DNA of 64,000 bases, from NCBI GenBank assembly GCA_965200475.1, contig CBDAUL010000010.1, positions 580,118 through 644,117 on the forward strand, in the 5' to 3' direction. A program made the position numbers and the translations under genes. The notes beneath the pieces were generated by a model. The model saw nothing but the letters and a program-made list of their open reading frames with translations, did not search any database and had not been told where the DNA came from. The DNA comes from Vicinamibacterales bacterium. Its GTDB lineage: Bacteria; Acidobacteriota; Vicinamibacteria; Vicinamibacterales; UBA8438. Shown piece by piece: positions 14,507 to 45,005 of the stretch (positions are counted from its first letter, which is position 1; every line of letters starts with the position of its first letter).

Positions 14507-14583
14507 GCGCCCTTAGCTCAGCTGGATAGAGCGTCTGGCTACGAACCAGGAGGCCGCAGGTTCGAATCCTGCAGGGCGCGCCA
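14507..14583 (+). tRNA. tRNA-Arg (anticodon ACG), CCA encoded
   Basis: 77 nt cloverleaf folded by hand: acceptor GCGCCCT/AGGGCGC, D stem GCTC/GAGC, anticodon stem TCTGG/CCAGG with loop CTACGAA, T arm GCAGG-TTCGAAT-CCTGC, discriminator G, CCA. Confidence 0.9.
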
Positions 14584-14595
14584 CTTCCCCTTCCC
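14567..14595. repeat. attL-type direct repeat (tRNA 3' end plus 12 nt)
   Basis: TCCTGCAGGGCGCGCCActtccccttccc. The partner is at 44977-45005. Confidence 0.8.
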
Positions 14596-14905
14596 GTCAG
14601 GTCCCTTGAAATCCCAGAATACCCCGTAAATACTGGCGTTTCCGTTTCCTGGAGTTCGTGCCGTTCCACGCGATTCCTTGCCGTTCTCAGAAATGGCGTG
14701 GTATAGTTCATGGTATACTCGTTCCGTTCCCGGTTCTAATCCCTGTGGGGACGCCACTTGCCGGTTTCTCCCCTTCCCGCGCAGTCCCGTAAACACACCT
14801 AACCCATCGGAATTACAGGCACTTACTAGGCTTGACGGTTCCGTTCTAATCCCGTATGTTCCCGGATAGGTCGTTGGTCAATTCGTTGGGACAGAAAGGG
14901 GCGAC

Positions 14906-16087
14906 ATGGGGAACCTCACGATGGCGCGGGTGAAGGCGATCAAGGTACCCGGTCTGCACGGCGACGGCGGCACCCTGTATCTGCGGGTGGCGCCCGGCGG
15001 GTCGAAGAGCTGGATCCAGCGGCTCACCATCAACGGGCGGCGCCGGGACGTCGGCCTGGGCGGCTGGCCGCTGGTGACGCTCGCGGAGGCCCGGGAGTTC
15101 GCCTTCGAGAACCGTCGACTCGCGCGCCGCGGCGGCGACCCGCTGGCCGACAGGCACCGCCCGAGCCTGCCGACCTTCGAGCAGGCCGCGGTGCGGACCT
15201 TCGAGGCGAACCGAGCCCGTTGGCGCCACGCGAAGACCGCGACCAACTGGGCCGGCTCGATGGCGAAGTACGCATACCCCGTCTTCGGCGGCCGGCCCGT
15301 TGACCAGATCGGCCGAGAGGACGTACTCCGCGTCCTGTCCCCGATCTGGACATCTAAGCCCGCCGTCTCGCGGAAGCTCCGCCAGCGCATCCGGGCCGTC
15401 CTGTCCTGGGCGCAGGCGCACGGGCACGTCGAGCACAACGTCGCCGGCGAGGCCATCGACGGCGCGCTGCCGGCGATGCCGGCCGTCAAGGCGCACTTCC
15501 GGGCGCTGCCCTACCCCGACGTCCGCGCTGCGCTCGACACCATCGCCGGCTCGCGCGCGTCGATCGCGGCGAAGGCGTGCCTTCGGTTCCTGGTGCTGAC
15601 CGCGTGCCGGTCCGGCGAGGCGCGGGGCGCGACCTGGGACGAGATCGACACCGAGGCCCTGGAGTGGCGCATCCCCGCATCAAGAATGAAGGGCGGCGCC
15701 GAGCATCGCGTGCCGCTCTCCGAGCCAGCGGCGGCCGCGCTCGAGGCAGTCCGGCCGCTGCGTGACGACGCCGGTTTGGTGTTCCCGAGCCCGTCGAGGC
15801 GCGGCCGGACGCTCTCAGACATGACGCTGACGAAGGTGCTGCGGGATACCGGGCTCGCGGACCGGGCGACGGTTCACGGGTTCCGCACGGCGTTCCGGAC
15901 CTGGGCGAGCGAGCGGACGAATGCCGATCACGCCGTCATGGAGATGTGCCTCGCTCACCAGGTCGGGACCGCCGTCGAGCGGGCGTATGCGCGTTCGGAC
16001 CTGCTCGCGAAGCGGCGCCGGCTGATGGACCAGTGGGGGGCGTTCGTGACCGGCGGCTGTGCGAAGGTGGTCAAGCTGCATCGTTAA
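14906..16087 (+). CDS. P4-type tyrosine integrase (island 1, intact)
   Basis: 393 aa. N-terminus GLHGDGGTLYLRVAPGGSKSWIQR is typical of the P4 integrase arm-binding domain. Catalytic region LVLTACRSGEARGATW ... VHGFRTAFRTWASE ... LAHQVGTAVERAYARSD. Confidence 0.9.
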   Translation: MGNLTMARVKAIKVPGLHGDGGTLYLRVAPGGSKSWIQRLTINGRRRDVGLGGWPLVTLAEAREFAFENRRLARRGGDPLADRHRPSLPTFEQAAVRTFEANRARWRHAKTATNWAGSMAKYAYPVFGGRPVDQIGREDVLRVLSPIWTSKPAVSRKLRQRIRAVLSWAQAHGHVEHNVAGEAIDGALPAMPAVKAHFRALPYPDVRAALDTIAGSRASIAAKACLRFLVLTACRSGEARGATWDEIDTEALEWRIPASRMKGGAEHRVPLSEPAAAALEAVRPLRDDAGLVFPSPSRRGRTLSDMTLTKVLRDTGLADRATVHGFRTAFRTWASERTNADHAVMEMCLAHQVGTAVERAYARSDLLAKRRRLMDQWGAFVTGGCAKVVKLHR

Positions 16088-16111
16088 GGCGACCGCGACG
16101 AGCGACTGGGG

Positions 16112-16826
16112 CGCGCTTGGAGCGTCGCATCCGCGCGACGCTGGCCTGGGCGCAGGCGCACGGTCATGTCGAGCACAACCTCGCAGGCGACGCCATCGAC
16201 GGCGCGCTGCCGTCGCTGCCGGCTGTCAAGGCGCACTTCCGGGCGTTGCCGTACCGCGAGGTCGGCGCGGCGCTGGAGACCATCGAGGCGTCTCGGGCGT
16301 CGGTGTCCGCCAAGGCGTGCCTTCGGTTCGTCGCGCTCACCGCCTGCCGGTCAGGCGAGGCCCGCCTTGCGACGTGGGACGAGATCGACCTGGAGGCCCG
16401 CGAGTGGCGCATCCCGGCGTCCCGGATGAAGGCGGCCGTCGAGCACCGCGTCCCGCTCGCCGACGCCGCGCTGGACGTACTGGAATCCGTCCGGCCGCTG
16501 CGCAGTCCGGCCGACCTGTTGTTCCCGTCGCCGTCGAGGCCGGCAAGGACGCTCAGCGACATGACGTTGACGAAGATCCTGCGGGATACGGGGCTGGCCG
16601 GCCGCGCCACGGTGCATGGCTTCCGTTCGGCCTTCCGGACCTGGGCGAGCGAGCGGACGAGCGTGCCGCACGCCGTCTGCGAGATGGCGCTGGCCCACCG
16701 CGTGGGTTCCGATGTCGAGCGGTCCTACGCGCGGTCGGACCTGTTCGACAAGCGCCGCGGGTTGATGGACCAGTGGGCGACGTACGTGACGGCGGCGGCG
16801 CGAAGGTGCTGCGCCTGCACGGATGA
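16112..16826 (+). pseudogene. 5'-truncated, frameshifted copy of the island-2 integrase
   Basis: Aligns by eye with 29471-30173 (RIRATLAWAQAHGHVEHNLAGDAIDG... to ...GAKVLRLHG). Lacks about the first 165 codons. One G missing near 16790 shifts the frame. Confidence 0.8.
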
Positions 16827-16921
16827 GCCGCAGCGAACCGTCGGGCCCAGCGCTGTCGTCGTTCGGCGGCTGATAGGGTTACCCCCGTGGTATCATCGGG
16901 AACACCATGGGGCGATCCAAG

Positions 16922-17221
16922 ATGACGACGCCGACGGATCGACTGTTGACGCGCGCGGAGGTCGAGCGGCGCACCGGGCTCGGGCGGAGCGCGCTGTACC
17001 GCGCGATGCGCGAGGGCCGGTTCCCAGAGCCGTTTCGGGTTGGTCCGACAGCCGTTCGGTGGTCCGAGCGGGAGATCGAGGCGTGGGTAGCGGCGCTCCC
17101 GCGCTCCCGTGGCGATGGCATCCACCGCGCGAGCAAGCAAGACGTGCCGAGCGCGGCACACGGAAGCGAGAGGCATGCCCAAATCGCCACGCCACACCGT
17201 CAATCTCAAGCTCTCGATTGA
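16922..17221 (+). CDS. AlpA-family excisionase/regulator (copy 1)
   Basis: MTTPTDRLLTRAEVERRTGLGRSALYRAMREGRFPEPFRVGPTAVRWSEREIEAWV is the classic AlpA HTH. The C-terminal extension may be read-through. Confidence 0.7.
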   Translation: MTTPTDRLLTRAEVERRTGLGRSALYRAMREGRFPEPFRVGPTAVRWSEREIEAWVAALPRSRGDGIHRASKQDVPSAAHGSERHAQIATPHRQSQALD

Positions 17222-17594
17222 GGAGTTCGCGGCGCTCGCAGCGGATGCCGACAAGTGCGAGGTTGCGCCGACGACGATGGCGCTCAGTCAGGTCCTGGCC
17301 GGCATGCAGCAGTTCCGCGGCGTGGTCCCGGACTTGACCGTTCCCGCAAGCCGCGCCACGTACGCCCTGAAGGAAGCGGCGGAGGCCCTCCGTGCGGCCG
17401 GCAACGCAGAAGCCGCACAGGCCGCAGAATCTGCGGGCCAGGAGCTGTACCAGGCAGTGGCTGACACCCGGGAGGGGCTTGGCTGGCTCGTGTGGCCCGG
17501 CTGGCGGCTGGACGCCTTTCGCCACCGCATCCCGTGGGAGGGAGAGAACGGCGGACGGCCGGACTTGACCGAATCCATTCTCAAGATCCGATGA
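17175..17594 (+). CDS. RHH/MobC-like small protein (copy 1)
   Basis: MPKSPRHTVNLKLSIEEFAALAADADKCEVAPTTMALSQVL resembles the ribbon-helix-helix of mobilisation accessory proteins. The paralog is at 30532. Confidence 0.4.
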   Translation: MPKSPRHTVNLKLSIEEFAALAADADKCEVAPTTMALSQVLAGMQQFRGVVPDLTVPASRATYALKEAAEALRAAGNAEAAQAAESAGQELYQAVADTREGLGWLVWPGWRLDAFRHRIPWEGENGGRPDLTESILKIR

Positions 17595-17689
17595 ACTCAC
17601 GAGCGAGCAACGTGGGCTGGCAAACGCCTGCACGGTGCCGCGCGCCCTCGAACCGGGCGGGGGATTCGCAGGATCTCCTGGTGCTCGTC

Positions 17690-17899
17690 GGCGTGGAGAC
17701 TGGCTTCGGCTCGACATTCCGGGACTGGGCGGCCGAGGAGACGAACCACCCGCGGGAGGTCGTCGAGGCAGCGCTGGCCCACATCGTCCAGAACGAGGTC
17801 GAGGCGGCCTACGGCCCGTCGGACATGGTCGAGCGCCGCCGGCAGTTGATTGACGACTGGTTCCCCTACGTCGTCGACGGTACCGGGAGCGCCGCCTGA
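17690..17899 (+). pseudogene. C-terminal remnant of a third P4-type integrase
   Basis: GFGSTFRDWAAEETNHPREVVEAALAHIVQNEVEAAYGPSDMVERRRQLIDDW matches the HxxR...Y end of P4 integrases. No N-terminal part is present. Confidence 0.55.
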
Positions 17900-18418
17900 T
17901 GATCGCCCATCTTCGGGACCGGTCGGATGCTCTCGTCCGGTCCGGCTGGACTCGCCGGGAAGCCGAGTGGCTGTCGCTGGTCTGCCTCCACAGCGGCGTG
18001 TTCCTCCGCTCGCAGTACCTCGCCTTCATCGGCCGGACCAATCCGGCGCTCGCGAACCGCTTCGTCCGCCGGTGCCGCAAGCACGCCGTCGAACAGCCGT
18101 GGAACGGCTCCCGGCTCCGCATCTGCCGGATCGCGGCCCGGCACATCTACTGAGCCGTCGGCGCGGAGCGCGTTCGGCATCGCCGGCCGGCTGCGCCGGG
18201 GGTGGTGCTGCGGCGTCTGCTGTCGCTCGACTACGTACTCGAACACCCGCACGCCGCGTAGCTCCCGACCCAGGACGAGAAGGTGAACGCGCTGACCGCG
18301 GCGGGGATCGCCACGGAGTTGCCGCGCCGGCTCTACCAGGGCCGCGGTCCGGGCGTAGTACCGCTACTTTCCCCACAAGCTGCCCATCTCGCTCGACGGC
18401 GTGCGGGCGACGTTCCTG
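17899..18418 (+). pseudogene. Decayed copy of the island wHTH (replication-relaxation-like) gene
   Basis: The first 84 codons match 31094-onward. There is a premature TGA at 18151 and a TAG near 18259 where the intact copy has sense codons. Homology breaks at 18419. Confidence 0.6.
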
Positions 18419-18436
18419 TGGGTACAGGGAGAAGTT

Positions 18437-18517
18437 GGGAGCGACCCACCGCAAAACTGCCGTCTTACGGACCCGGCAGGTGTTCCTCCGTCACACCTGC
18501 CGCGCCGGGTCGCTCCC
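18437..18517. other. 81-nt three-way-junction element, copy 1 (ncRNA or DNA site, function unknown)
   Basis: Outer stem GGGAGCGACCC/GGGTCGCTCCC. Inner hairpin CGGCAGGTGT-tcctccgtc-ACACCTGCCG. A second, weaker hairpin at 18449-18473. Confidence 0.4.
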
Positions 18518-18840
18518 CTCGAAATCTTCCTTGCAGGAAGGCCAGGACCGACCCGTGGCGCTCGCTTGCACGCGAGGCCGGCAGCGCTGACCACGACAAC
18601 ATCAGCGCTCGCTCGCCTGACCGTCATCGCGTGCGACTGCTTCGACCGTCCCATGGGCCGAACGGCGGCTAGTAGCCTAGCAGACCGCCGCCAGCCGTTC
18701 GCGGAACATGACAGCATCAAGCCGCCCGAACCCGTCGCCGCAGTGACGGCACCCGCCCCGCACGCCGCCTCGATCCGAACCCCGGCCCGAACCAAACGGC
18801 CGTGCCACACAGCACCGCTCAACTTCCGGCCAAAAGGTCA

Positions 18841-21336: not shown

Positions 21337-22606
21337 CACTGCTGTCCCACGGGATTTCTAATTTAGGCGGCTTGAACCTTCTATGTCTGTTAGAATGGTT
21401 TTGCCACAAATCATTCAAAACACAGGAGATCCAAGCCGTGGCCCATCATAACACAGTCTTCGGGCAGTTTCTCGCGTTGCTTCCGCGACATGAATTCGAC
21501 GCCGAGTCGCGCGAGCATCAGCGCGGCCAGCGCCTGCGGGTGATGAGCCGCTGGGCGCAGTTCGTCGCGCTCGGGCTGGGCCAGGTGACGGGCCGGCAGA
21601 GCCTGCGCGACATCGTGGCCAACCTGCAGGTCCAATCCAGCAAGCTCTATCACCTGGGCGTGCGGACCGTCAGTCGTTCCTCGTTGGCACGGGTCAACGC
21701 CGAGCAGCCGTATACGCTCTACGAGGCGGTGTTCTCCCGTCTGCTGAGCCGCTGTCAGCAGCAGGCGCCGGGCCACCGCTTCCGCTTCAAGCACAAGCTG
21801 TATGCGGTCGATGCATCGACTATCGACCTGTGCCTGGCCCTCTTCCCGTGGGCCACGTTTCGCCGCACGAAAGCCGCGGTCAAGCTGCATGTCGGGCTCG
21901 ACCAGGCGGGCCAGTTGCCGAGCTTCGTCAGCCTCACCGAAGGCAAGCGCGGCGACGTGACCGTCGCCCGCACGTGGCGGTTTCCGGCCGGCAGCGTGGT
22001 CGTGGCCGACCGTGCGTATCTCGATTTCAAGTGGCTGCATCAATTGCAGACCCGTTCGGTGACGTTCGTCACCCGCCTCAAGCGGGGCGTGCGCTACCGG
22101 GTCACCCACGAGCACGACTTTCGGCCGGAGACCGGCGTGCTCGCCGACCAGCGGATCGAACTGACGAGCGCCCGCAGCGGCAAGGCCTACCCCGACCCGT
22201 TGCGCCGGGTGGTCTACCGCGACCCGCAGACGAAGAACCGCTACGTGTTCGTGACCAACAACACCACCTGGGTCGCCAAGACGATCGCCGACATCTACAA
22301 GTCTCGCTGGCAGATCGAGCTGTTCTTCAAGTGGATCAAGCAGCATCTGAAGGTCAAGCGCTTCATCGGCCGGTCGAAGAACGCCGTCTGGACCCAACTG
22401 TGGATCGCCACCTGCATGTACTTGCTGCTGGCCTATCTCAAATTCGTCCTGCGGCTGCGCTGGAGCCTCAATCAGATGCTCCAGGTGCTGCAGCTCAACA
22501 TCTTCGAACGTCGACCACTACACGAACTGTTCACCACACACGCGCCGCCAGACCCCGACCGTCCGCAACTGGCACTCGCGTGGACCTGAAACTGTGGGAC
22601 ACTAGT
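21337..22606 (+). mobile_element. IS4-family insertion sequence nested in the IS1182 transposase gene
   Basis: Flanked by the 10-bp direct repeat GCTTGCGGAC (21327-21336 and 22607-22616). Ends share TGTCCCAC in inverted orientation. Confidence 0.8.
21438..22589 (+). CDS. IS4-family DDE transposase (DUF4372-type N-terminus)
   Basis: GTG start after AGGAG. VAHHNTVFGQFLALLPRHEF..., DDE region LYAVDASTIDL ... VVADRAYLDF ... YKSRWQIELFFKWIKQHL. Confidence 0.85.
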   Translation: MAHHNTVFGQFLALLPRHEFDAESREHQRGQRLRVMSRWAQFVALGLGQVTGRQSLRDIVANLQVQSSKLYHLGVRTVSRSSLARVNAEQPYTLYEAVFSRLLSRCQQQAPGHRFRFKHKLYAVDASTIDLCLALFPWATFRRTKAAVKLHVGLDQAGQLPSFVSLTEGKRGDVTVARTWRFPAGSVVVADRAYLDFKWLHQLQTRSVTFVTRLKRGVRYRVTHEHDFRPETGVLADQRIELTSARSGKAYPDPLRRVVYRDPQTKNRYVFVTNNTTWVAKTIADIYKSRWQIELFFKWIKQHLKVKRFIGRSKNAVWTQLWIATCMYLLLAYLKFVLRLRWSLNQMLQVLQLNIFERRPLHELFTTHAPPDPDRPQLALAWT

Positions 22607-23774
22607 GCTTGCGGACATTCTCGTGACCGCGCACAAACACCCGACGCATGCCCCCCGTCTCATACATGTGCGCGAAAGTACGCTCCACCATCTCGCCCCG
22701 GCAGCGTTGCAGGCGACGACCCCGCCGCCCGTGCACACGCCGCCGGTTCGCATACAACGCCTGCTGCGCAGCACGCTTCGCCGGCGGCGTCTCTCCCGTC
22801 TTCTTGTCCTGCCAGACGCGCCGGCCGCGCTCGGGCTCCGATACGTAGCTCCGAACCCCGACCTCGCCGAGAGCCACCAGCGTCTCGTCGCTGTGATACC
22901 CCTTGTCAGCGACCAGCTCTTCGACCCCTCGACCGTCCGGCTGCACCAACTCCACCTGCTCGGCCGCCGCGGTCAGCGTCTCCGGCAGCGTGGCCGTATC
23001 GCCGTCCGATGCATCCTGCACCGTCACCGACACGATGGCCCCCGTCTCCATGTCGACCCCGTGCTCGACCTTGTGAGCCAAGTGCGTCCGGCCGTCCTTC
23101 ATCTTCGCGATCTTCGCGTCCGGGTCCTGCGGCGATTGCCAGTCCTTGTTCGACGTCTTCTTGTTCTTGCGAGACCGGTCGAACCGAGCCAGATCCGCCC
23201 GCGTCGGGGTCTCCACCCCAGACGCCTCCGCCAAGCGCCGAAGGAACGCTTCGTAGCTTTCTCCCGTGTCCCGCCGCTCGATGCTCCGCATCGCCGCGTT
23301 CGCTTCCAGCGTCGTCGCATCGACGCCCACCGTCTTCCCCTTGACCAGACCCGCCGCCGACAACTGCTCGAGAACCCACGTGAATACCGCCTCGTGCGTC
23401 TCGTCGTCGATCAGACGACGCGTCCGCGACAGCGTCGAGTGGTCCGGCGCCGCCTCGGTCACATCCAGGTCCAGGAACGACCGCAGGCTCAGAGAGTCGG
23501 CCACCCGCCACGCAATCCCACGCTCCGAAGACAGACCCTCGAAGTAGCCGATGAACAGCATCCGGAAATACCGCCCAGGACGCAGGCTCGGCCGCCCCAT
23601 CCGCGTCGCGTAGAACACCGCGCACAGCCCCTCGACGAACGCGTCGAACCCGGCCTCGTCCAGAACCCGGTTCAGACGCTCGAAGAACGGATGCCCCGCG
23701 TTCGTCGGCAAATCCGCCGTCGTCACCCACAGCGGCGCCCCTGGTCGCGCGGCCGGTTTCTTGCCCATCGCCAT
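22602..23774 (-). pseudogene. IS1182-family transposase, N-terminal fragment (native sequence ends at 22617)
   Basis: MAMGKKPAARPGAPLWVTTADLPTNAGHPFFERLNRVLDEAGFDAFVE..., DDE region VGVDATTLEANAA ... LVADKGYHS. The reading frame runs into the nested IS4 element. Confidence 0.8.
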
Positions 23775-23843
23775 AGCTGTTCAGTCTACGGGCTCGATCG
23801 CGCCCAGGCCAGGCCCGTTCCCCGACTTTCACCACGGGCTGCT

Positions 23844-25043: not shown

Positions 25044-25429
25044 TGTCGGCGAGCGCGAAAAACTGACGGATTCTCGAGGCCTGTTCGGGCATGCGTGCCG
25101 TCGGCCGTGTTCGTCGATGTCTTGAGGAAGAAGAGGATGATGGCTGTGGTCGCTGTGCGAAACCGCGTCTGCGCGGTTTTGCAAACTGCTGTGGGCGCGG
25201 CTGTTTGCGTCCACAGCAGTGGCGGCGTCCACAGCCTCCGGGCAGGCGTGGCGGGCGGCGGCTCGTTGGGGTAGCGTTGACGGCGGACTCAGACGTGGGG
25301 TGAGGGCCCGGCAGAGCCACCGGACCCTCGTGACCGCCCCGTGCTCCGACAGAGCGAGCCGGTCGGTGCAGTTGTGCCACGGTTCGACCGCGTTGTCCAG
25401 TCGGAGACCGCCCCGCGCGCTCCGACGCC

Positions 25430-35022: not shown

Positions 35023-35731
35023 TCCGGTCGGGTCACTTCGCACGCTGCGGACCAGACGGAAGCGGGCAAGGCGCAGCGTCGAGATCCTGAAGGGGCGCTA
35101 CAGCTCGACGTTGCTGAATAACAAGGACGACCCGCTCGACGAGCTAGTGTTCATCATGCTGTCGCAGATGACGACCGGCCCGAGCTACGAACGGGTCTAC
35201 GACCGCCTGAAGGCCGCGATGCCGCACTGGCGGAGCCTGACCGAAACGTCCGTCGCCGACCTCACGTCGCTCATCGCCGACGCCGGCTTGGCTGGACAAC
35301 GGGCCGTCCGGCTCAAGCAGATCGCCGATCGGCTGGTCCACGACTTCGGTGAGGTCTCCCTGACCGCTCTCACTACCTCGGACGACGACGCGGCGCAGCG
35401 CTACCTCACGTCGCTGCCCGGCGTTGGGGTGAAGACCGCCAAGTGCGTCATGATGTACAGCCTCGGACGACAGGTTCTACCGGTGGACACCCACACCGCA
35501 CGTGTCGCTACCCGGTTGGGACTCGTCTCGACGGGGAGTGCGGCAGCCGTTGACCGAGACCTCTCCGTCGTCGTTCTGCCGTCGCTCCGTTTCGATTTCC
35601 ACGTGAACGCCGTCGCCCACGGCCGTGCGGTGTGTCGTGCGGTCACGCCCCGTTGTGACCACTGCGTCCTGTCCTCGCTGTGTCCGGTAGGCCGTGCCGC
35701 CAGCCGGACGACCCGAAGACGACGAACGTGA
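34949..35731 (+). CDS. HhH-GPD superfamily DNA glycosylase (EndoIII/Mig-like) with 4Fe-4S Cys motif; start uncertain
   Basis: DPLDELVFIMLSQMT, HhH LTSLPGVGVKTAKCVMMY, catalytic-Asp region LPVDTHTARV, cluster CRAVTPRCDHCVLSSLC. All ATG starts overlap the MTase 3' end; a TTG start near 35110 is possible. Confidence 0.75.
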   Translation: MTTFPPTSPRSSRASSLGVPGAHDDPVGSLRTLRTRRKRARRSVEILKGRYSSTLLNNKDDPLDELVFIMLSQMTTGPSYERVYDRLKAAMPHWRSLTETSVADLTSLIADAGLAGQRAVRLKQIADRLVHDFGEVSLTALTTSDDDAAQRYLTSLPGVGVKTAKCVMMYSLGRQVLPVDTHTARVATRLGLVSTGSAAAVDRDLSVVVLPSLRFDFHVNAVAHGRAVCRAVTPRCDHCVLSSLCPVGRAASRTTRRRRT

Positions 35732-36137
35732 CCGTGGTGGTCGGGGTCACGGCCGTACTGCCAACGACTCGCTCGATCCCCAGACCCTGGCAGAGCCAGT
35801 CCACGCGATGCCTCCAAGGGCGCCCCAGACCGCGCGGGTGCGCGACGGCGAGTACGCTGCCCACGGCCCGCTCGCAAGGTGGCACGAGCCATCTGAGGTA
35901 GTCGCGGAGCCGATCGGCGCTGTGCAGGTCGCACGGCCCCTCCGTGTGCTTCGCCTCCCCGAGGAACAGACCCGCCCGGTCGACATGGACGCGAAGTACG
36001 TCCGGGCGCCTGCCGTCCGGCAGCGGCATCGTCAGGCGGAAGCCGGCAGCGTCGGCGATGGTCTCCAGAAGGGCACGCCGCGTCTCATGCGCGCGACTCG
36101 GAGTCATCGTCGAACGATCAGGCCCGCGGCTCATCAA
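35643..36137 (-). CDS. Small PD-(D/E)xK-like nuclease (tentative)
   Basis: 164 aa. RRPDVLRVHVDRAGLFLGEAKHTE fits D-x(n)-E-x-K. ATGA overlap with the SNF2 stop. The 3' end overlaps the convergent glycosylase gene by 89 nt. Confidence 0.45.
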   Translation of the reverse strand: MMSRGPDRSTMTPSRAHETRRALLETIADAAGFRLTMPLPDGRRPDVLRVHVDRAGLFLGEAKHTEGPCDLHSADRLRDYLRWLVPPCERAVGSVLAVAHPRGLGRPWRHRVDWLCQGLGIERVVGSTAVTPTTTVTFVVFGSSGWRHGLPDTARTGRSGHNGA

Positions 36138-37912
36138 GCTTCCACCGCGGCCAGCAGCGCAGCCGCCTCACGGACGTCGGCGAGGAACGCCTCGCGCGTG
36201 ATCGGGGTGTCAACCTGGTCCCCGAGTAGGTCTTGCGCCGCCTGCTCCTTCTGCACAAGCCGGTCGTACTCAGAGACCTCGATCGTGCCATCACACAGCA
36301 TGACCACGTACTCGACGTCCCGCTCCTGCCCACGGCGGTGGATGCGGTCGAGGCTCTGAAGGTAGTGGGCTGCTTGGTTCGAGAGCGACTCGTAGATCGC
36401 CACACGTGCCCGGTGCAGCGTCAGCCCCGCACCGGCAGCTGCGGGGTTGGCGACGAAGACCATCGTCTCGTCGTCCTCCTGGAACCGAAGCACTGCGTCT
36501 CGCCGTGCGCCAACGTCCGACACCGAACCGTCGTACCGGACGACGCCGTAGCGGGCGTATCGCTGGGTGATCGCCCCCACGGATGCCGTGTAGAACGACC
36601 AGACCACCACCTTCTCACGTTGCCGGCCGACCAACTCTCCGACGAGTGCATCGAGAGCCGCCAGCTTTGCAGGCGTCTCGCAGTAGGCCTCTGACACGCC
36701 CTTCGGGTTCGAGCAGATCTGCAGGAGTGCCGCGCGACGAGCCAGGAAGCTCGCGCGTCGCTTGACGAAACCCGTGTCGTCGACCGCCTCGGCGTCCGTC
36801 ACCAAGCCGTCCAGCGTCGCCCGGTAGAGACGAGCCTGCTCCTCCGCCATCGAGACCAGGACACGCTGGAACCGCTTCAGCGGCAGCTCAGGCAGCACGT
36901 CTGTCTTCAGATGTCGGAGGAAGAGCCCCCGTTCCTCGATCGCGGACTGCACGACAGGGGCCGCCAGCGCTCGGTCCGCAGGCAGATCGACGCCCTCGAA
37001 ACAGTAGCCGAAGTCGACGAGGCTGAACTGTTGGACGAGGTCGGAGGGCGAGTTCGGTGCGGGAGTGCCGCAGAGCACGTAGGCCCGGCCAGCCCACTCC
37101 CGCAAGCGCCGGAGGGCGCGCGTCCGTCTCGCATAGAGCGACTTGATGAAGAACGACTCGTCGATGGCGAGCACTGTCCGCCCGGTCCGTGCGCGCATCA
37201 GAGCGCGCAGTTCCCGCTCCATGGACACCGCCGTCTCGAAGTTCGTGACGAAGATATCGGCACCCACCGCGAGCAGGCGGCGCTTCTCCCGCGCGGTGCC
37301 GGTCAGCACGGAGGTGCGGTAGATGTCGCCCCGGAACCGTTCCAGGTCCTTGGGCCACTCGCCGATCATGCTCTTCGGCGCGACGATGATCGCGGCGTCA
37401 GCGTGGTCGCGCTCCATGAGCAGATCGAACGCGAAGATGAACGTCACCGTCTTGCCGGCACCCTGCTCGTCGAAGACACACAGGCCGGGGCTGTCCGGCA
37501 GGGTCATGGCCGCGACGTTGACGACCTGATGCCCGTCCAGAACACCGAGACCGTCGCTGTCCGCGATCATCCGCTCGGCGAGGCGGAGACCCTCGCGCCG
37601 GATCCGACGGAGTGCCTCGAACACTCCCGCGTGGACCGATGCCACGTGCTGTCGGTTCTCGACGAAACGCCGGGCCTCGGGCGTCCAGATCATCTCGACC
37701 TCCGAGACCAGCTCGTCCAGGCGTCGGGCTAGCGGGACTGGGATCCTGACCCCTTCGGCAGAACGCGTGACGCCGGCCCCTTGAGGACCGAGGCCCCTCC
37801 TGACCGCCCGTAGCAACGAGGTGCCTTCACCGCGTTCCGGTACCAGGAACAGGGCGTCGAGGGTCTCCGTGGGTCTCAACTCGGCGCGGACCGGGTGGCG
37901 GTCAGGCTCCAT
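36134..37912 (-). CDS. SNF2-family helicase/translocase
   Basis: Motif I DEQGAGKT, motif II LAIDESFFIKS, C-terminal lobe VVWSFYT...GAGLTLHRARVAIYESLSNQAAHYLQSLDRIHRRGQ. Confidence 0.85.
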   Translation of the reverse strand: MEPDRHPVRAELRPTETLDALFLVPERGEGTSLLRAVRRGLGPQGAGVTRSAEGVRIPVPLARRLDELVSEVEMIWTPEARRFVENRQHVASVHAGVFEALRRIRREGLRLAERMIADSDGLGVLDGHQVVNVAAMTLPDSPGLCVFDEQGAGKTVTFIFAFDLLMERDHADAAIIVAPKSMIGEWPKDLERFRGDIYRTSVLTGTAREKRRLLAVGADIFVTNFETAVSMERELRALMRARTGRTVLAIDESFFIKSLYARRTRALRRLREWAGRAYVLCGTPAPNSPSDLVQQFSLVDFGYCFEGVDLPADRALAAPVVQSAIEERGLFLRHLKTDVLPELPLKRFQRVLVSMAEEQARLYRATLDGLVTDAEAVDDTGFVKRRASFLARRAALLQICSNPKGVSEAYCETPAKLAALDALVGELVGRQREKVVVWSFYTASVGAITQRYARYGVVRYDGSVSDVGARRDAVLRFQEDDETMVFVANPAAAGAGLTLHRARVAIYESLSNQAAHYLQSLDRIHRRGQERDVEYVVMLCDGTIEVSEYDRLVQKEQAAQDLLGDQVDTPITREAFLADVREAAALLAAVEA

Positions 37913-39494
37913 CGCCCTGAGCCTCCTCCGCGTCGTCCGTCTCCAGGTAGGTCTCAACGTGTTTCAGCACGTTCCGCAGACGCTCCAGGTTCTCCCGCTT
38001 CACCGAACCGGACTCGTTCGGGTCGAACGCCTTGAGCGGCAATGAGAGGAACCAGTCCGCGAAGACCCTGATCCTCGTGTTGGCTGCAGTCTGGCGGCGC
38101 TCCGCACGGCTCACCCGCGCTAGGTCGATCGCGTTGTTGACCTCGTCCCGGGCCGCCTCCAGATCGGACTCGTCGCGTGCCTTCCGCAGGAGGTCGATCG
38201 CGTCGTCGTTCTCGTAGACGTACTTGAGATCCCGGATCTTCTGCCAGCTCTGGAACTTGCCGTCGTACAGGAGGTCGAAGACGAGGTGCTTGAAGCTGTC
38301 GTCTTGGTTCAGCGACCAGTGTACTCCCCCCGCGTTCTTCCCCTTGTTCAACTCGTCGAAGTACTGGAACTTGTCTGACGCGCGGTGTTTCGCGGCGAAC
38401 CGGTCCTTGGCGCGGTCGACAACGTGGTAGTCCTCGAATTCCCGTGCGAGCCCCACCATGTTGATGTAGCGGGTGACCTCGTTCGTCGACAGCGCGAACT
38501 TCCGCGCGATATCCCGCCTGATCTCTCTCAGCCGCACCGTCCCGGGGTTCGCCCGGGGCTCGAGCGACAGCCGGGCCTCCCACTCGTCACGCACCTTCAG
38601 GGCCTTGACGTACTCGGGCCAGTCCTGCTTGTAGTCAGGCTCGAAGTTCAGCGACACGATCACAGCCTCGCGGTCTTGCGCCGTCGCGTGCTCGGTGAGT
38701 TGCCAGACCTTCAACCACTCCGCCCGCTGCTTCTCCTCCGCCGTGAACTCACCGTTGTCGTCCTCCAGGATGTGGTAGCAGGCCGTGACCCGCCGGTTCC
38801 CGTCCAACAGCTTCCCGTCTAGGTCGACGATGGGAGGTTTCCGTACGCCGTTGACCGCGACACTCTTGGCCAGCGCGTGGATCGCGAACTGGTCGGTCTC
38901 CTCGATGCCTGGCAGCGGCATCGTGCCCCTCATGATCGCCACCAACTCCTCGGCGTCTGGGCCGCGGCCGTACTTCTGGTGGAACTGGTTCAGGTGGATG
39001 TCGAGCCGTTCGTTCTCGTCCCAGAGTTGGATGTCCCGCGTGCGGACGAACCCCTCCACTACCGCGACGGCGCGCTCGTGGAACACGGGCATCGGTCGCA
39101 CCGGTGCCGGGTCGATCCCGTCGTACGGCTGCAACTGTAGGCGCCCCTGGCCGTTTGCCGATGGACCGGCCTGTGTGTCAGGTCCGGCGGTGTTGGTGGT
39201 CGGGGTGCCCGTGCCCCCGCCGACCGAGAGCTGCGCCCGCACTCGCTCGGTCTGGGCAATGAAGGCCTCGGCATCGCGATCCAGGAGCTTGACGGTCTCC
39301 GTGTCACCGCGCCTCGCAGCACCGGCACGAACGACCTCCACCACCCTCGTCAGCAGCGCTCGAACCTCTTCTACCGAGATCGGATTCTCCAGCCCCTCGC
39401 GCAGCATTCCCTCGATCGACGCGCGGACATCGGAGGACATGGCCTCTGCTGCCCGCAGTAGTTCCGTCAGTGCCTTCTTCAATCCTGCGTTCAT
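37902..39494 (-). CDS. ParB-N (ParB/Srx-fold) domain protein with a long helical C-terminal region
   Basis: Start MNAGLKKAL at 39494 (ATGA overlap with the sigma-like stop). Core LAKSVAVNGVRKPPIVDLDGKLLDGNRRVTACYHIL (the GxxR box of ParB). HTH-like STNEVTRYINMV. A Gly/Thr/Pro linker follows an N-terminal helical segment. Confidence 0.7.
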   Translation of the reverse strand: MNAGLKKALTELLRAAEAMSSDVRASIEGMLREGLENPISVEEVRALLTRVVEVVRAGAARRGDTETVKLLDRDAEAFIAQTERVRAQLSVGGGTGTPTTNTAGPDTQAGPSANGQGRLQLQPYDGIDPAPVRPMPVFHERAVAVVEGFVRTRDIQLWDENERLDIHLNQFHQKYGRGPDAEELVAIMRGTMPLPGIEETDQFAIHALAKSVAVNGVRKPPIVDLDGKLLDGNRRVTACYHILEDDNGEFTAEEKQRAEWLKVWQLTEHATAQDREAVIVSLNFEPDYKQDWPEYVKALKVRDEWEARLSLEPRANPGTVRLREIRRDIARKFALSTNEVTRYINMVGLAREFEDYHVVDRAKDRFAAKHRASDKFQYFDELNKGKNAGGVHWSLNQDDSFKHLVFDLLYDGKFQSWQKIRDLKYVYENDDAIDLLRKARDESDLEAARDEVNNAIDLARVSRAERRQTAANTRIRVFADWFLSLPLKAFDPNESGSVKRENLERLRNVLKHVETYLETDDAEEAQGDGA

Positions 39495-40189
39495 CGTTGC
39501 ACCTTTCCGTCGCCGTCCGTGTCTGTCTCCGGGAGGTCCATCGGTACTCCGACGCCCTCCCGTTCCGCGAGCCGACCGAGCCGTTTCAACCCCCGCGAGA
39601 CGAGGGTCCGAGCGGCGTTCTCCGAAATGCCAACGTGTTCCGCGATGGCAGACGCCGGCAGGTCGGGCAGATTGTTCTCGGCTGCGTCGATCAGCACCTC
39701 CATGACGGCGACTACTTGGCCGTGGCCAATCCTCGGCAGAAGCTCGCGGGCAACCCGGATCGCCTCCTTGCGGCGCGCTTCTTCCAGTGCGCGACGCTCC
39801 GCGGCCTCTCGAACCGTCTCGCTTGGGTCCGGCCGCGCTGGAAGGGCGGCCGTGTCGAAGTCCTGTCGGCGCGAGTAGTCCGTCTGCCACTTGTCGTCTG
39901 CGATGTTCCTGGCCGCCTTCCACAGCCACGCGCCGAGCATGCCGATGCGCCGACCTTGGAAGACTGCGGCGCAGGCCGCATCCACGGCCTGCGCGATGCA
40001 CTCGTCCACCTCTGACGTCGGAAGAGCGTCCCACTGCTTCTGCAACCGGCGTCTCAGGCCATCGAGGTAGCCACTTGCGGTCAGCGCTTCGAGCATCTCC
40101 AGCGGCTCGCCGCCGTTGACCGCCGCCTGTGCCCGCTGGAGTAGCCGAGCTGCGTCGTCGATTCCTGCGTCTTGTTGGCTCGTCGTCAT
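39491..40189 (-). CDS. Sigma-70/ECF-like protein (regions 2 and 4)
   Basis: Start MTTSQQDAG at 40189. Region-2-like LGAWLWKAARNIADDKWQ. Region-4 HTH LPASAIAEHVGISENAARTLVSRGLKRL. Confidence 0.6.
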   Translation of the reverse strand: MTTSQQDAGIDDAARLLQRAQAAVNGGEPLEMLEALTASGYLDGLRRRLQKQWDALPTSEVDECIAQAVDAACAAVFQGRRIGMLGAWLWKAARNIADDKWQTDYSRRQDFDTAALPARPDPSETVREAAERRALEEARRKEAIRVARELLPRIGHGQVVAVMEVLIDAAENNLPDLPASAIAEHVGISENAARTLVSRGLKRLGRLAEREGVGVPMDLPETDTDGDGKVQR

Positions 40190-40639
40190 GACACCTATCC
40201 GCGACCGAATCTGCCGGGTCGAACTGTCGCCATACCCGGTAGTCTCTGGGCGAAACAGGCGACGCCGTGGAACTGATGAGCGACCTCCGTCCGTGGTCGC
40301 TGGCGACGCGCCGGATTGGTCCTTCCCGGTCGCCAGGTGCAACAAATGGGCGGCCGACCGAACGGCTCCCCGGGTGCGGCGAGAAGAGCGTCAGCGTGGG
40401 AGGGCGTCGGTGATTGGCGACCGCCAGGCCGACGGCTGTCCGGTGTCCGTCAGGAGACGAGCGACACGCTGTCGCCGGCGTTCAGGCAGTCGGAGAATGG
40501 CGACGGCAGGACTTGGTGAGGCGCCCGGGCGAGGGAATTTGTCCCATCCCTGATGTTCCGCATGATGTTCCGCAGGCGGCGTTCTTGGTCCGCTGAAGCC
40601 CGGTACAGAACGGGGGATGTACCGAGGGGAACCAACCCG

Positions 40640-41867
40640 CTCGGATCACATAAGTGTCACATTATGGATGGTTTATGGGATTCGGGCGTCGGACACCTTG
40701 GCGCGGCAGCGCCTGATGGCGGCGACGTTCGACTACTACCGGCTCGCCCACCCGGACGAGGGGGTGGGCAGCGGCTTCGAGTACCGGACGGTCCCCAAGG
40801 TGTCGGCTGGCAGTCTGGCCTACGGCCGGACAGAAGAGACGACCCTCTACGACCAACCGCTCCGCGACAAGACCAAGGTGCGCGTCACTGGTCCGTTCAC
40901 GGTCGAGGCCGTGCCGCGCTGACCGTTGCGTCCGTGGATGACGCGATCACGGCGGGGAGCGCCCAACCGGATGCCGATGCGCCACTGGCCGGTGCGTCCG
41001 TGGCGCGGGACGGCGAGACCCTGCGCGAGAGCGACTGGCGCGCCGAGCTGCTACAGACCGGCATCCGAGGCCGGGCTGGTCAACGATTGACGTTCACCCG
41101 CCTGGAACCGCTGCCGGGCGCACGGTGGCTGCACGCCGATGGGGAGAGTGTGCCGGCTGCGGCATCGCCCGAACGCCCGGAACAGGACGAGCCATCGAGC
41201 GACGACACCGGACCGGAACGCGTCGTGGTCTCGTTCGGGCCGGACCACGCGCCGCTGGAGCAGCGGCATGTGGACCGTGCCATCGAGGAGGCGCGGAAGC
41301 TGGCTCCCCGCCCGACGGTGATCGTCTTCGCCGCCTTCCAGTTCGACCCGGAGGCCGCGAAGGACATCGACGAGACCCGCTGGCCCGGCGTGATGCTGCT
41401 CAAGGCGCAGATGAACGCCGACCTGCTGGCCGACGACCTGAAGAAGACACGGGCCAGCAACGAGAGCTTCTGGCTCGTCGGCCAGCCGGATGTCGAGGCG
41501 GTGCCGGTCGACGACGGACCGGACCCCGGCAAGGTGCTGGTGACGGTCCACGGCTTCGACTACTACGACACCCGCAGCGGAACGGTGGATTCGGGCGGCG
41601 CGGAGAAGATCGCCTTGTGGATGCTCGACCCGACTACGACGGCCGGAGCCTCTTCCCGCGCGGCAGGTGTTCTTCCCCCAGGCCGGCGCGAAGGACGGCT
41701 GGGCGAAGCTGGCGAAGGCGCTGAGGACGGAGATCGATCTGGCGTTGATCGAGCGGTACCGAGGCACGGTTTCGTTGCCGTTCGATCCCGGCCCGCACCG
41801 CCGGGCGGCGGTGAAGATCGTGGACGACCGGGGCATCGAGAGCCTCAAGGTGCTGGACCTGCCATGA
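40640..41867 (+). pseudogene. Type III-like DNA methyltransferase (mod), 5'-truncated with at least two frameshifts
   Basis: Pieces in three frames: ..GFEYRTVPKVSAGSLAY..LYDQPLRDKTKVRVTGPFTVEAVP | ..VVVSFGPDHAPL..IVFAAFQFDPEAAKDIDE..NESFWLVGQPDVE..GFDYYDTRSG | FFPQAGAKDGWAKLAKAL..RGTVSLPFDPG..VKIVDDRGIESLKV. No catalytic N-terminal half is present. Confidence 0.7.
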
Positions 41868-43982
41868 CCGGCCGGCGAACGATAGACCAGCTCATCATCA
41901 ACTCGCCCTACGACGTTCCGGCTGAGCACTGGCGCTACAACCGGGGCGAGCGGCCCGGCGAGGCCGGGACGTTCACGCGCGAAACCGGCCGCCGCCCGGC
42001 CGGCTACCACGTGCCCGTGGCGAGCGATGCCCGGCGCGACCCGTACGATCCGGGCGAGTTCGTCGAGCTGCCGCTGGTCAACCGGATCCGGACGCGTGTG
42101 GACGAGTGGCGGGCTGCCGGCTATCCGGGGGCGACGGGCATCACACGGCGGCTGCTTGACCACTGGCGGCGCGAGACTGGACCGTCAGCGACTTCGGGCT
42201 GAACGACGCCATCGAGTCCGGGCTGGCCAAGACGCCGAGGGTCGTGGTCCGGGACGACGCGCGGGCCGATGCGAAGACCGACCGCTCCCGCCTGTACCAC
42301 CTGTACGGCGACGAGACGGTGAAGGACGACCTGAAACGGAAGGCTGAACCGCACGAGCCGCTGCCCGATCTGGTCGTCAACGGATGCCACCTGCTCGGTC
42401 ACGACTGGGACGAGACGCGGCGCAGGTGGGAGGAGCTGGGCCATTCGACCCGGCCGGTGCTCATCACCGTCACCAACCGAACGGAGACGGCCGCCCGCAT
42501 CAAGCACGCATTCGACAAGGGGAAGGTGCGGATCGACGCGCTGCGGAACCCGGAGCGGACGCTGCATATCGACTCGAAGGTGCTCGGCGAGGCGGAAGCG
42601 TCAGGTGAGCCGCTGGCGCTGGTCGATGGAACCATCGCGGACGGGCCGGGCGCGGGCCACGACGACGCCGGCACCCCGAAGCTGACGCGGCAGGAGCGAG
42701 CCGAGTTACTGCGGCGGCAGGTCGATACGGTCGGCAAGCCGGGCCAGGCGGGCGAACGGATCCAGAACGTCGTCTCGGTCGGCATGCTCTCGGAAGGATG
42801 GGACGCCCGGACGGTGACCCACATCATGGGGCTGCGCGCCTTCACGAGCCAGCTTCTGTGCGAGCAGGTGGTCGGTCGCGGCCTGCGGCGGACCTCCTAC
42901 GACATCAACCGCGAGACTGGACGGTTCACGCCGGAGCACGTCAACGTGTTCGGCATCCCGTTCCTGCCGCACGAGCAGGGCGACGGTCCGCCGCCTCCGC
43001 CCCCGCCGCCGAAGACCGCCGTGATGCCGGTGCCGGAGAAGGCCCGGTTCGAGATCACGTGGCCCAACGTTGTCCGGGTCGCGCACGTCTACCGGCCGCG
43101 GCTCTCGCCGACATCGATCGGTTGGATCCGCTGGAACTGGATGCCGGAGACACGGCGCGACTCGTGGAACTGGCCGAGGTGGTCGATGGCGTGCCGGACG
43201 TTGCCCGCGTCAGCGGCATCGATCTGGACGCGCTGGCGCAGGAGTTTAGGACGCAGCGCATCGTTTTCGAGACGGCCGGCGACATCTACGACCAGACGCA
43301 GCCCGGCTGGCGCGGCGCGCGGGCCATCCTGCTGGCTCAGATCGTCCGCCTCGTCGAACGCGTGATCGGGTCGGACCGCATCCGAGTCATCCCGGAATCG
43401 CCCCTGTTCGGCAGGGGCAGGCTCGGACGTCGGCTCGTCATCACCCTGAACATGACGAGGGTCGTCCAGCATCTGTGGGAGGCGATCCGGTTCGAGAACG
43501 CCGAAGCGCTCGACCTCGTGCTCGACCCCGAGCGCGCCATCGTTGCGACCGGCGACATGCCGCTCTGGCACACCGGAAGGCCTTGCCGGGACGCTCGACG
43601 CAGCCACATCAACCACTGCGTCTGCGACAGCGGCTGGGAGGCGGAGACGGCCGCCGTCCTCGACCGCAGCCCGCACGTTGCGGCGTGGGTGAAGAACGAC
43701 CACCTGGGATTCGAGATCCTCTACCTCTACAAGGGCGTCGTGCGGAGGTTCCTGCCCGACTTCCTGATCCGCCTGACCAACGGACGCCGGCTCGTCCTGG
43801 AGGTCAAGGGCGAGGACACGGACCGGAACCGGACCAAGCGCCGGTTTCTCGCCGAGTGGGTGCGGGGCGTGAACGCCGACGGGCGCTTTGGCCGATGGGC
43901 GTCGGATGTCCTGCTCGATCCCGATGAGATCGGCGGAATCCTCGACCGACACGGGAGGGCCGATCCGCGCACGACGCCGTGA
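41864..43982 (+). pseudogene. Type III-like restriction helicase (res), with an internal deletion and a frameshift
   Basis: N-terminus MTGRRTIDQLIINSPYDVPAEHWRY...LVNRIRTRVDEWRAAGYPGATGITRRLLDHW, then a stop at 42202. Resumes ..NDAIESGLAKTPRVV.. with helicase C-lobe motifs VSVGMLSEGWDARTVTHIMGLRAF..QVVGRGLRR. A frameshift near 43090 leads into the C-terminal endonuclease-like part (..FLIRLTNGRRLVLEVKGED..). Helicase motifs I-III are missing. Confidence 0.7.
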
Positions 43983-43984
43983 GT

Positions 43985-44170
43985 TGCCCCAACGCAACCC
44001 CGGTGCTGGTAGCACCAGATCTCGCCAGCGTCGCCGTCGAGCGCCAGCGTCGAGTTGTGGTAGAGATCCGTGTTGTCGGTGCCGCCCATCAGGAACTTCG
44101 GCGCGGGGACCTGACCGACGTGCCGACGTAGACGAGGTTCAGCTCCGGATCGTAGGCTCGGCACCATTCC
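43985..44170 (-). pseudogene. Short frameshifted fragment of a PQQ-type beta-propeller dehydrogenase
   Basis: Own translation gives YDPELNLVYVGT.. then GGTDNTDLYHNSTLALDGDAGEIWCYQH, which resembles the conserved ..LY.NS.VALD..TG...W..Q propeller blade. No start or end is present. Confidence 0.3.
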
Positions 44171-44200
44171 ACGGTATCATCGCTTGTAGAGGAGGAACCA

Positions 44201-44452
44201 ATGGCAGGAAAACCCCTCGCTGAAGAGTCCAGCACTTACGAAGCCAACCTGGAGCGGTGGGCGGCGGAGCACCCCGGCGAATTCGTCCTCATTCGAGGCA
44301 CAGAGGTCGTCGGGTTCTTCGCGACAAACGAGAAGGCCCTGACCGAGGGCTACAAGCGCTTCGGAATCGCCCCGTTCTTCGTCAAGCAGGTCACCCCGCG
44401 CGGCCAAGCCCACTTCATTTCCCGACTCACGGCCCCGGCGCCGATGACCTAA
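44201..44452 (+). CDS. Small DUF5678-like protein
   Basis: 83 aa. HPGEFVLIRGTEVVGFFATNEKALTEGYKRFG. GGAGGA RBS. Sits upstream of a retropepsin-like gene. Confidence 0.45.
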   Translation: MAGKPLAEESSTYEANLERWAAEHPGEFVLIRGTEVVGFFATNEKALTEGYKRFGIAPFFVKQVTPRGQAHFISRLTAPAPMT

Positions 44453-44460
44453 GCAGCAGC

Positions 44461-44904
44461 GTGCCTTCGGTCACGGAACCCATCGTCGACAGAAGGCCGA
44501 TCATCACGGCTGCCTTCCACGTCAGCCGCCCACGTTGGGTCGCGCTGGATCATGCGCGTCAGACAATACCCGACCCCATCCTCGGTCGCGCGTTGATCGA
44601 CACGGGGGCGACTGATTCGTGCGTGGATCCAGCCGTCACGGTCGCGTTGGGGCTCGATCCCAGGGCGACCTCGCGAGTTCACACCGCGTCAACCGCCGGC
44701 GAACCCCACCGCGTGGTCCTGGTGGACATGTCCATCATTCTGATACCTTCCGACGAGGGTACCCCGTTGGTCTTGCCTTCGATGTTGACGGTGCAGATCG
44801 ATCTTCGGAGCCAAGGGATCCATGCACTGATCGGCCAAGACGTCCTGGCGCGCTGTCGTCTGGTGCACGACGGGCCACGGCAGTGCTTCACACTGTCGTG
44901 GTAG
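44461..44904 (+). CDS. Retropepsin-like (clan AA) aspartyl protease
   Basis: GTG start, in frame with track ORF 44257. Active-site-like ALIDTGATDSCVD and C-terminal IGQDVLARCRLVHDG. Confidence 0.55.
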   Translation: MPSVTEPIVDRRPIITAAFHVSRPRWVALDHARQTIPDPILGRALIDTGATDSCVDPAVTVALGLDPRATSRVHTASTAGEPHRVVLVDMSIILIPSDEGTPLVLPSMLTVQIDLRSQGIHALIGQDVLARCRLVHDGPRQCFTLSW

Positions 44905-44976
44905 CTTCCGTGGGATAACTGAAAACCAAGACGGGCTAACCTGTTGTTGGGTTTTGACTTACATGCTTGATTCTAG

Positions 44977-45005
44977 TCCTGCAGGGCGCGCCATCTCCCC
45001 TTCCC
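44977..45005. repeat. attR-type direct repeat (displaced copy of the tRNA-Arg 3' end)
   Basis: TCCTGCAGGGCGCGCCAtctccccttccc: 17/17 then 10/12 identical to 14567-14595. Weaker identity extends about 8 nt upstream into the T-loop. Confidence 0.8.

Follow-up and report, generated by a model that had tools for sequence, protein, structure and literature searches.

How did the 30.4 kb of DNA that follow the only tRNA gene of this locus come to lie there, and where do they begin and end? The locus is a window of 64,000 nucleotides (nt) from a Vicinamibacterales bacterium (contig CBDAUL010000010.1, positions 580,118 to 644,117), whose sole tRNA, found by ARAGORN, is an intact tRNA-Arg(ACG) at 14507–14583 on the + strand, as is also seen in alignments A1 and A3 with relatives. 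The original prediction, made from the letters of the window, was that an island of about 30.4 kb is integrated in the 3' end of this gene, and its elements are all in place: the tRNA is intact, a fragment of its 3' end lies in the same orientation 30.4 kb downstream, and tyrosine integrases are encoded between the two. We consider it very probable that 14567–45005 is a composite genomic island, inserted site-specifically by P4-type tyrosine integrases in the 3' end of tRNA-Arg(ACG). Three lines of evidence, namely the habit of the integrase family, the absence of the DNA from relatives and its composition, lead us to regard the 30 kb as an integrated element, and the locus appears to display the Islander signature, that is, an intact tRNA plus a 3' fragment, an integrase between them, and absence of the intervening DNA from the same locus in relatives.

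The repeat observed at the two ends is far beyond chance. The last 17 nt of the tRNA, TCCTGCAGGGCGCGCCA, which comprise the 3' strand of the T-stem, the acceptor stem, the discriminator and CCA, occur at exactly two sites in the 64 kb when both strands are searched with up to two mismatches (14567–14583 and 44977–44993), and shuffled sequences gave a mean of 0.09 such matches. In the left attachment site, attL, the block of identity (14567–14595, +) continues from the T-stem strand, acceptor stem and CCA through 12 nt of CT-rich flank; compared in the same orientation with 44977–45005, it is identical at 27 of 29 positions, and the sequences quoted for both blocks in the original prediction were exact, including the two mismatches. 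Extended to 38 nt, the repeat still has 87% identity (14561–14598 versus 44971–45008), with a start-to-start spacing of 30410 nt. A weaker identity reaching back into the T-loop, likewise anticipated, is seen in the pair GGTTCGAATCC and GATTCTAGTCC, and 22 of 25 positions agree over the T-arm and acceptor end (GGTTCGAATCCTGCAGGGCGCGCCA). The right attachment site, attR (44969–45005, +), is a displaced tRNA 3' fragment composed of a T-loop-like GATTCTAGT, the exact 17-mer and TCTCCCCTTCCC. Aligned locally against tiles of the whole window, the tRNA 3' region scores 51 at attR and about 30 at the best unrelated tiles, so that the computational alignment of the two repeats, proposed as a check, favors the claim. 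The opposite outcome, that the 29-bp block would belong to a dispersed repeat family, was not borne out: in 81 related loci the 17-mer is confined to the tRNA-Arg gene itself and is therefore not a dispersed repeat.

Directly inside the repeats lie integrases. The DNA has a G+C content of 62–75% with many spurious open reading frames (ORFs), and gene calls were guided by third-position G+C. Two intact P4-type integrases are encoded on the + strand, Int1 at 14906–16087, starting 323 nt past the end of the tRNA, and Int2 at 28971–30173, with 77% nucleotide identity to Int1. Both contain Arm-DNA-bind_3 (PF13356), Phage_int_M (PF22022) and Phage_integrase (PF00589) domains, all above the gathering score, and in an alignment with metagenomic homologues (alignment A4) the residues R235, K262, H324/R327 (HxxR) and Y361, as well as the histidine of the LAH motif, are invariant in Int1 and Int2. 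We take these columns to be catalytic, from general knowledge of tyrosine recombinases. Judged by domain architecture, by these residues and by the use of tRNA or tmRNA 3' ends, both proteins fall within the P4-type subfamily. A third copy, Int2' (16126–16826, +), is truncated to its C-terminal ~233 amino acids and shares 94% nucleotide identity with 29472–30173; of the two P4-type integrase modules predicted just inside the repeats, both integrases were recovered, and the count has to be corrected to three copies, Int2' being the truncated one.

The habit of this integrase family is consistent. Fifteen metagenomic loci encode Int1 relatives with 31–75% identity, and on the contigs that are long enough the homologue lies on the same strand as a tRNA gene, about 140–260 nt 3' of it. 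The gene used is tRNA-Arg(CCT) in loci L082, L083 and L084 (69–75% identity to Int1) and in L093 and L094, tRNA-Cys in L085, tRNA-Ala in L086 and tRNA-Ser in L088, and in L090 and L091 the Int1-homologous integrase lies within ~1.2 kb of a tmRNA gene, likewise on its strand. L085 holds a complete island of 10.2 kb, whose boundaries are two copies of a 24-nt stretch of the tRNA-Cys 3' end, T-loop to CCA (23/24 identity), so that the part of the tRNA serving as attachment site is the same as in the window.

The spacer between attL and Int1 (14596–14905, +), which corresponds to the P' arm and the int promoter region, contains a CTTGACGGTTCCGTTCTAATCCCGTA block that is common to related islands, and further blocks of the tRNA-to-int spacer are shared among them, for instance CTTGACNGTTCC...AATCCC. 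Within the window, GTTCCGTTC is found as an exact match at 14721–14729 and 14838–14846 only, both in this spacer, and GTGGGATAA is found once, at 44910–44918, 59 nt to the left of the attR core. The latter motif, GTGGGAYAA in its general form, is repeated beside int in L082 and L084. GTTCCGTTC and GTGGGATAA are possible arm-type integrase binding sites, candidates suggested by motif resemblances that should be taken as hints only. A degenerate third att copy at 14732–14756 (GGTTCTAATCCCTGTGGGGACGCCA) was considered and rejected, as it mismatches at 7 of 25 positions, a level at which shuffled sequences yield ~0.7 hits per window, and unrelated tiles score higher than the 25 that it reaches in local alignment.

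Comparison with related genomes shows that the 30 kb is not conserved core, which was the other outcome that would have spoken against an island. In L100, which has 95% nucleotide identity over the right-hand core, the order is MoeA, MoaB, GH3, DinB_2, tRNA-Arg(ACG), DUF433, DUF2268, SGL gene and AcrB, and 1.37 kb separate the same tRNA from the SGL gene and the conserved block, compared with 32.3 kb in the window. In L001 (same contig as L004; 92% nucleotide identity), the tRNA is followed by 70 nt, an amidohydrolase and then a beta-lactamase gene. L003, the closest relative as judged by the beta-lactamase (96% identity in protein, 93% in DNA), has a truncated P4-type integrase from 42 nt past the tRNA, unrelated DNA of 3.4 kb, a 68-nt remnant of a Uma2-family gene and then the beta-lactamase. 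The 30 kb is absent at the tRNA from L100 and L001, and L003 keeps there only a remnant of 4.4 kb; no attR remnant was detected above background in L003, L100 or L001. The sequence following the tRNA differs among attL and attR of the window, L001, and L100/L003 (alignment A2). As to composition, the G+C content of the island is mostly 0.62–0.70, that of the DNA on its left 0.72–0.75 and that on its right ~0.70. With four different fillings in four related genomes, the tRNA-Arg locus is, to judge by this comparison, a turnover hotspot rather than the site of a single clean insertion.

The right-hand boundary deserves closer consideration, as the conserved right-hand core starts at ~46916 and the DNA between attR and that point (45006–46916) is variable among relatives. 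It contains a Uma2-family gene (~45133–45618, +), which appears to be 5'-truncated or frameshifted, and a beta-lactamase-family gene (45622–46878, -). The Uma2-family region, a putative restriction endonuclease fold, spans 45032–45618, with a Pfam match that covers profile positions 55–142 only; the 68-nt Uma2 remnant of L003 corresponds to the 3' end of the gene, beside the beta-lactamase. It is conceivable, though in our view doubtful, that the island is larger and its right end lies near 46916, the Uma2 remnant and the beta-lactamase being an older island whose own att has decayed. Such a reading would fit the lack of 45006–46916 in L100, which has DUF433 and DUF2268 instead, and the presence in L001 of the beta-lactamase without Uma2, whose place is taken by the amidohydrolase. 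However, no second tRNA fragment is found to the right of attR in the window with up to 7 mismatches in 25 nt, and over 35 further Vicinamibacterales genomes encode the beta-lactamase at sites where there is no tRNA within 10 kb; among 40 related beta-lactamase-bearing loci scanned, a tRNA lies within that distance only in L003 and L004. Since so many genomes carry the gene away from a tRNA, the beta-lactamase behaves as a chromosomal gene with shifting synteny.

Inside the island, the integrases belong to two related modules. Module A (16126–18544, +) was recognized by self-blastn as a decayed sibling of module B (28971–32857); the two are collinear with 88–94% nucleotide identity, and the stretch 31625–32729 is missing from module A. 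Each includes an AlpA-family regulator or excisionase (PF05930), at 16907–17221 (+; 54.5 bits, cut-off 21) in module A and at 30279–30578 (+) in module B. Module B also has an ORF with no assigned function (30968–32047, +), part of which is present in module A (17773–18428). Right after the stop codon of Int1, a piece of 37 nt (16086–16122) has 92% identity to 31850–31885 within this ORF, and it is probably a scar left when the remainder of the Int1 element was deleted.

This organization, with two intact integrases, one truncated integrase and two AlpA genes, looks like the accretion of about three P4-like elements. In the mechanism that we propose, the target would be the tRNA 3' end, made up of T-loop, acceptor stem and CCA. 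The attP of an incoming circle would carry a copy of this end, and integration would regenerate the tRNA at attL and push the previous 3' end downstream, so that attR at 44977–45005 would be the surviving displaced end. Some three successive insertions would have taken place at the same tRNA, and because each new arrival uses the intact tRNA and displaces earlier elements rightward, the newest would adjoin the tRNA. The first to enter would be island B, running from Int2 to attR, with Int2, AlpA, a cytosine methylase, the SNF2 locus and a decayed type-III-like restriction-modification (R-M) system; the second, island A, from Int2' to the end of Dsr1, with the truncated Int2', AlpA and a Dsr1 gene broken by insertion sequence (IS) elements; and the last, an element now reduced to Int1. 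The Int1 cargo, the 5' third of Int2' and the two internal att sites would later have been lost by deletion.

Alternatively, a single P4-like integration might have brought the island, and the second module might have arisen by internal duplication or by later recombination with a related element. The collinearity of modules A and B agrees with this, as does a search for internal tRNA fragments at the presumed junctions, near 16100 after Int1 and at 28782–28970 between the end of Dsr1 and Int2, which found none with up to 7 mismatches in 25 nt. We nevertheless think this unlikely, as the integrase copies, at 77% and 94% nucleotide identity, are too diverged for a recent duplication, the cargo that follows each module is different, and tandem arrays at one tRNA gene (tDNA) are documented, accounting for 125 among 3919 Islander islands (PMC4383910). 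In an Islander tandem array, every unit possesses an integrase and a tDNA fragment of its own, and no such fragment is present near 16100 or at 28782–28970; because these internal fragments are missing, we describe the locus as an accreted composite and not as a clean array. That the repeat might be a coincidence or a functional motif such as a terminator or tRNA-like element, within 30 kb of ordinary variable chromosome, is extremely improbable, for although all relatives have a CT-rich stretch following the tRNA and part of the 12-nt extension could be shared composition, the 17-mer, present twice in the window and in the related loci only in tRNA genes, has the correct orientation and side, its alignment score stands well apart from background (51 versus ~30), and integrases of a family always found 3' of tRNA genes lie directly inside it.

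The outer att pair is the only one left, and if the 30.4 kb can still excise, they could do so only as a single unit. The predicted circular attP junction would read GGGTTTTGACTTACATGCTTGATTCTAG-TCCTGCAGGGCGCGCCA-CTTCCCCTTCCCGTCAGG, and the repaired chromosomal site, attB, would consist of the tRNA followed by TCTCCCCTTCCCTTCCACGCTACGATG. Int1, Int2 and both AlpA genes remain intact, and the 17-nt core is identical in the two outer sites, which makes excision of the whole island conceivable. At the same time, the presence of three ISs and of several disrupted genes points to decay.

The same tRNA is also bordered by mobile DNA on its 5' side. The left flank (1–14503) is, by its Pfam and PHROGs matches, the right-hand part of an integrative conjugative element (ICE) and not core chromosome, running off the left edge of the window, as homologues of VirB2, B3, B4, B6, B9 and B10 and an integrase are contiguous. 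On the - strand, it encodes TrbL/VirB6 (293–1300), TrbI/VirB10 (2422–4581), CagX/VirB9 (4538–5599), a VirB4-like ATPase (5493–7913), VirB3 (7910–8215), the TrbC pilin, a VirB2 homologue (8219–8557), a DnaC-like loader (9927–10643), a replication initiator (10640–11710) and a helix-turn-helix protein (11926–12465); on the + strand, a LexA-like repressor (12268–13242) and a tyrosine integrase (13218–14495), which is not of the P4 type (PF00589 only, phrog_1), is oriented toward the tRNA and stops 12 nt short of it. A prophage on this side had been suggested by a weak PHROGs terminase hit and was rejected, the Pfam match being to a VirB4/TraG-type ATPase in a conjugation operon. L001 shares the 3.6 kb closest to the integrase (10989–14589) at 86% nucleotide identity, and L003 and L100 lack them; in the latter two, core genes and a TTGCTATAAT promoter lie directly upstream of the tRNA, and it is exactly from the tRNA 5' end onward that the window resembles these ICE-free genomes. 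In the window, L001 and L084, TTGATTCTAAAGC precedes the tRNA.

Relatives suggest how such elements use the gene. Homologues of the ICE integrase lie directly 5' of tRNA-Arg in L097 (41% identity, tRNA-Arg(TCG)) and in L083 and L084 (35%, tRNA-Arg(CCT)), and in L084 an element of 7.2 kb with a homologous integrase is flanked by an exact 44-nt repeat, which consists of 3 nt plus tRNA nt 1–41 and so covers the 5' half up to and including the anticodon loop. On the 4.17-Mb contig of L001, the native promoter and tRNA nt 1–39 are found beside DinB_2 at ~139.0 kb (L103 12549–12588), and the intact tRNA (L001 12985–13061) at ~376.4 kb on the same strand, ~237 kb from the 5' fragment as calculated from the record ranges (alignment A3); such a distance suggests that the 5' side holds one element of very large size or else elements in a long array. 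In L101, an integrase fragment is followed by tRNA nt 1–43, a displaced 5' fragment, and then by foreign DNA, as expected if such 5'-side elements stack. L102 is a short contig with the same GH3 protein as the contig from which the window probably derives, and at its end stand the native promoter and then nt 1–30 of the tRNA. In an IMG/VR contig with a homologue of the ICE integrase, exact scans for both tRNA halves found one copy only. Most likely, then, the anticodon loop is the integration site of the ICE, from which the working tRNA has its 5' half and upstream region: the ICE would recombine there, bring its own tRNA 5' half and upstream region, and leave the native 5' fragment at its far end, beyond the window. 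By comparison with relatives, nt 1 to ~39–43 of the tRNA and the upstream promoter region would come from the ICE, and at least the last 17 nt from the P4-like island. The succession of an ICE-type integrase, tRNA-Arg(CCT) and a P4-type integrase was also observed in the unrelated metagenomic contigs L083 (2894–5323) and L084 (8744–11173), which have the same sequence in different assemblies. That one tRNA-Arg, serving two unrelated integrase families at its two ends as a three-part chimera with an ICE promoter, could mean a functional partnership, for instance P4-like defence islands relying on the ICE for transfer, strikes us as very unlikely.

Several points weigh against the history proposed here for the island and the ICE. 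A clean empty attB, with the right flank of the window (TCTCCCCTTCCCTTCCACGC, Uma2, beta-lactamase) directly after the tRNA, is present in none of the relatives compared; the empty tRNA-Arg site that the original prediction called for is matched in part, in that the 30 kb is absent from L100 and L001, and not in the form of a pristine attB with the same right flank. L003 and L100 share the first 42 nt past the tRNA, yet in L003 an integrase fragment comes next. For this reason, a one-step model is too simple, and the site shows rearrangements that such a model leaves unexplained. No att site is detectable between the sub-islands, which leaves the duplicated integrase modules as the evidence for tandem accretion. 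As the left junction of the ICE lies beyond the window, its insertion into the tRNA's 5' half in the source genome is proposed on the model of relatives.

The cargo of the island is, as far as the gene matches tell, mostly related to anti-phage defence and much of it is inactivated; since most of it consists of fragments, we have not filed these genes as functional systems. The inventory given earlier, with three ISs, a candidate defence locus and a decayed R-M system, was recovered and can be specified. An IS4-like element (21337–22607, +) has 14-nt terminal inverted repeats and a transposase with DUF4372 and DDE_Tnp_1 domains (21372–22589), and is followed by an IS5-like transposase with DUF772 and DDE_Tnp_1 (22602–23774, -). 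The third, an IS21-family element (25038–28146, +) with istA (25806–27308), istB (27124–28068) and 29-nt imperfect terminal inverted repeats, lies within the gene of the defence-associated sirtuin Dsr1 (NCBIfam NF041818; Dsr1 in PADLOC). The N-terminal SIR2 part of Dsr1 is lost, and the surviving C-terminal half is split by the IS21 element into a fragment at 23761–25125 (+; model positions ~667–1054) and a C-terminal fragment at 28065–28781 (+; model positions 1062–1261), which score 77.8 and 64.6 bits, far below the NCBIfam full-length cut-off of 1400 bits.

Further to the right lie a C5 cytosine methyltransferase (33655–35022, +) and an HhH-GPD nicking-endonuclease-like protein (34904–35731, +). 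The candidate defence locus (35643–40034, -) comprises a 164-amino-acid ORF, an SNF2 helicase of ZorD/DpdE-like type (36134–37957, -) and a 710-amino-acid ORF. The helicase gene overlaps that of the 710-residue protein, and the two form a candidate defence pair (36134–40034, -); the latter protein has no match in Pfam, NCBIfam or PADLOC. The R-M system is type-III-like and decayed (40553–43365, +), with an MTase_III-like segment and fragments of a BPTD_3080-family restriction endonuclease over two ORFs, whose scores of 77.8 and 296 bits stay far below the full-length cut-off of 800 bits. The last gene before attR encodes a retropepsin-like aspartyl protease (44257–44904, +). A second protease similar in kind is encoded at 56345–56755, among the small ORFs of a patch of low G+C content (56000–58300; 0.63 versus ~0.70 around it), and this patch may be another small foreign insert.

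Taken with what is known of such elements, the island would be an ordinary case of the well-described P4/CP4-57-type class. It has the same integrase architecture and an AlpA gene after int, and int lies a few hundred nt 3' of an intact tDNA on the same strand, with a short direct repeat of the tDNA 3' end at the far boundary; it differs in its host, a Vicinamibacterales acidobacterium, in its target, tRNA-Arg(ACG), and in being decayed and riddled with ISs, with three integrase copies and the internal att sites lost. Like the tandem arrays of Islander (PMC4383910), it has several integrase-bearing units stacked downstream of one tRNA, but the units of those arrays keep their own tDNA fragment, and here only the outermost survives. 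As in defence islands, the cargo is dominated by defence genes, namely Dsr1, the cytosine methylase with its nicking enzyme, the SNF2 locus and the type-III-like R-M system; here, however, most genes are fragments or IS-interrupted, and none reaches a curated full-length threshold. The ICE would in turn belong, by inference from relatives, to the known class of islands with a displaced 5' fragment and an anticodon-centred att, which in Islander number 159 of 3919, versus 3760 with a 3' fragment (PMC4383910). It shares with this class the position 5' of the tRNA and an integrase that reads toward the tRNA, and relatives have the 40–44-nt repeat of the 5' half; it differs in its VirB-type secretion system and in a far junction that lies beyond the window, the 5' fragment of L001 being ~237 kb from the tRNA.

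All together, our results leave the general understanding of island integration unchanged, and the one mildly unusual point is that a single tRNA gene is occupied from both ends. Their value lies in the precise boundaries that they give for DNA gained by horizontal transfer in a soil phylum that has been little studied, and in marking the genes of the island, among them the pair of the SNF2 helicase and the 710-amino-acid protein, as mobile defence cargo. For those who annotate this genome, nearly the first 47 kb of the window are mobile, and the part of this stretch that seems native to the chromosome is limited to a short piece of the tRNA.

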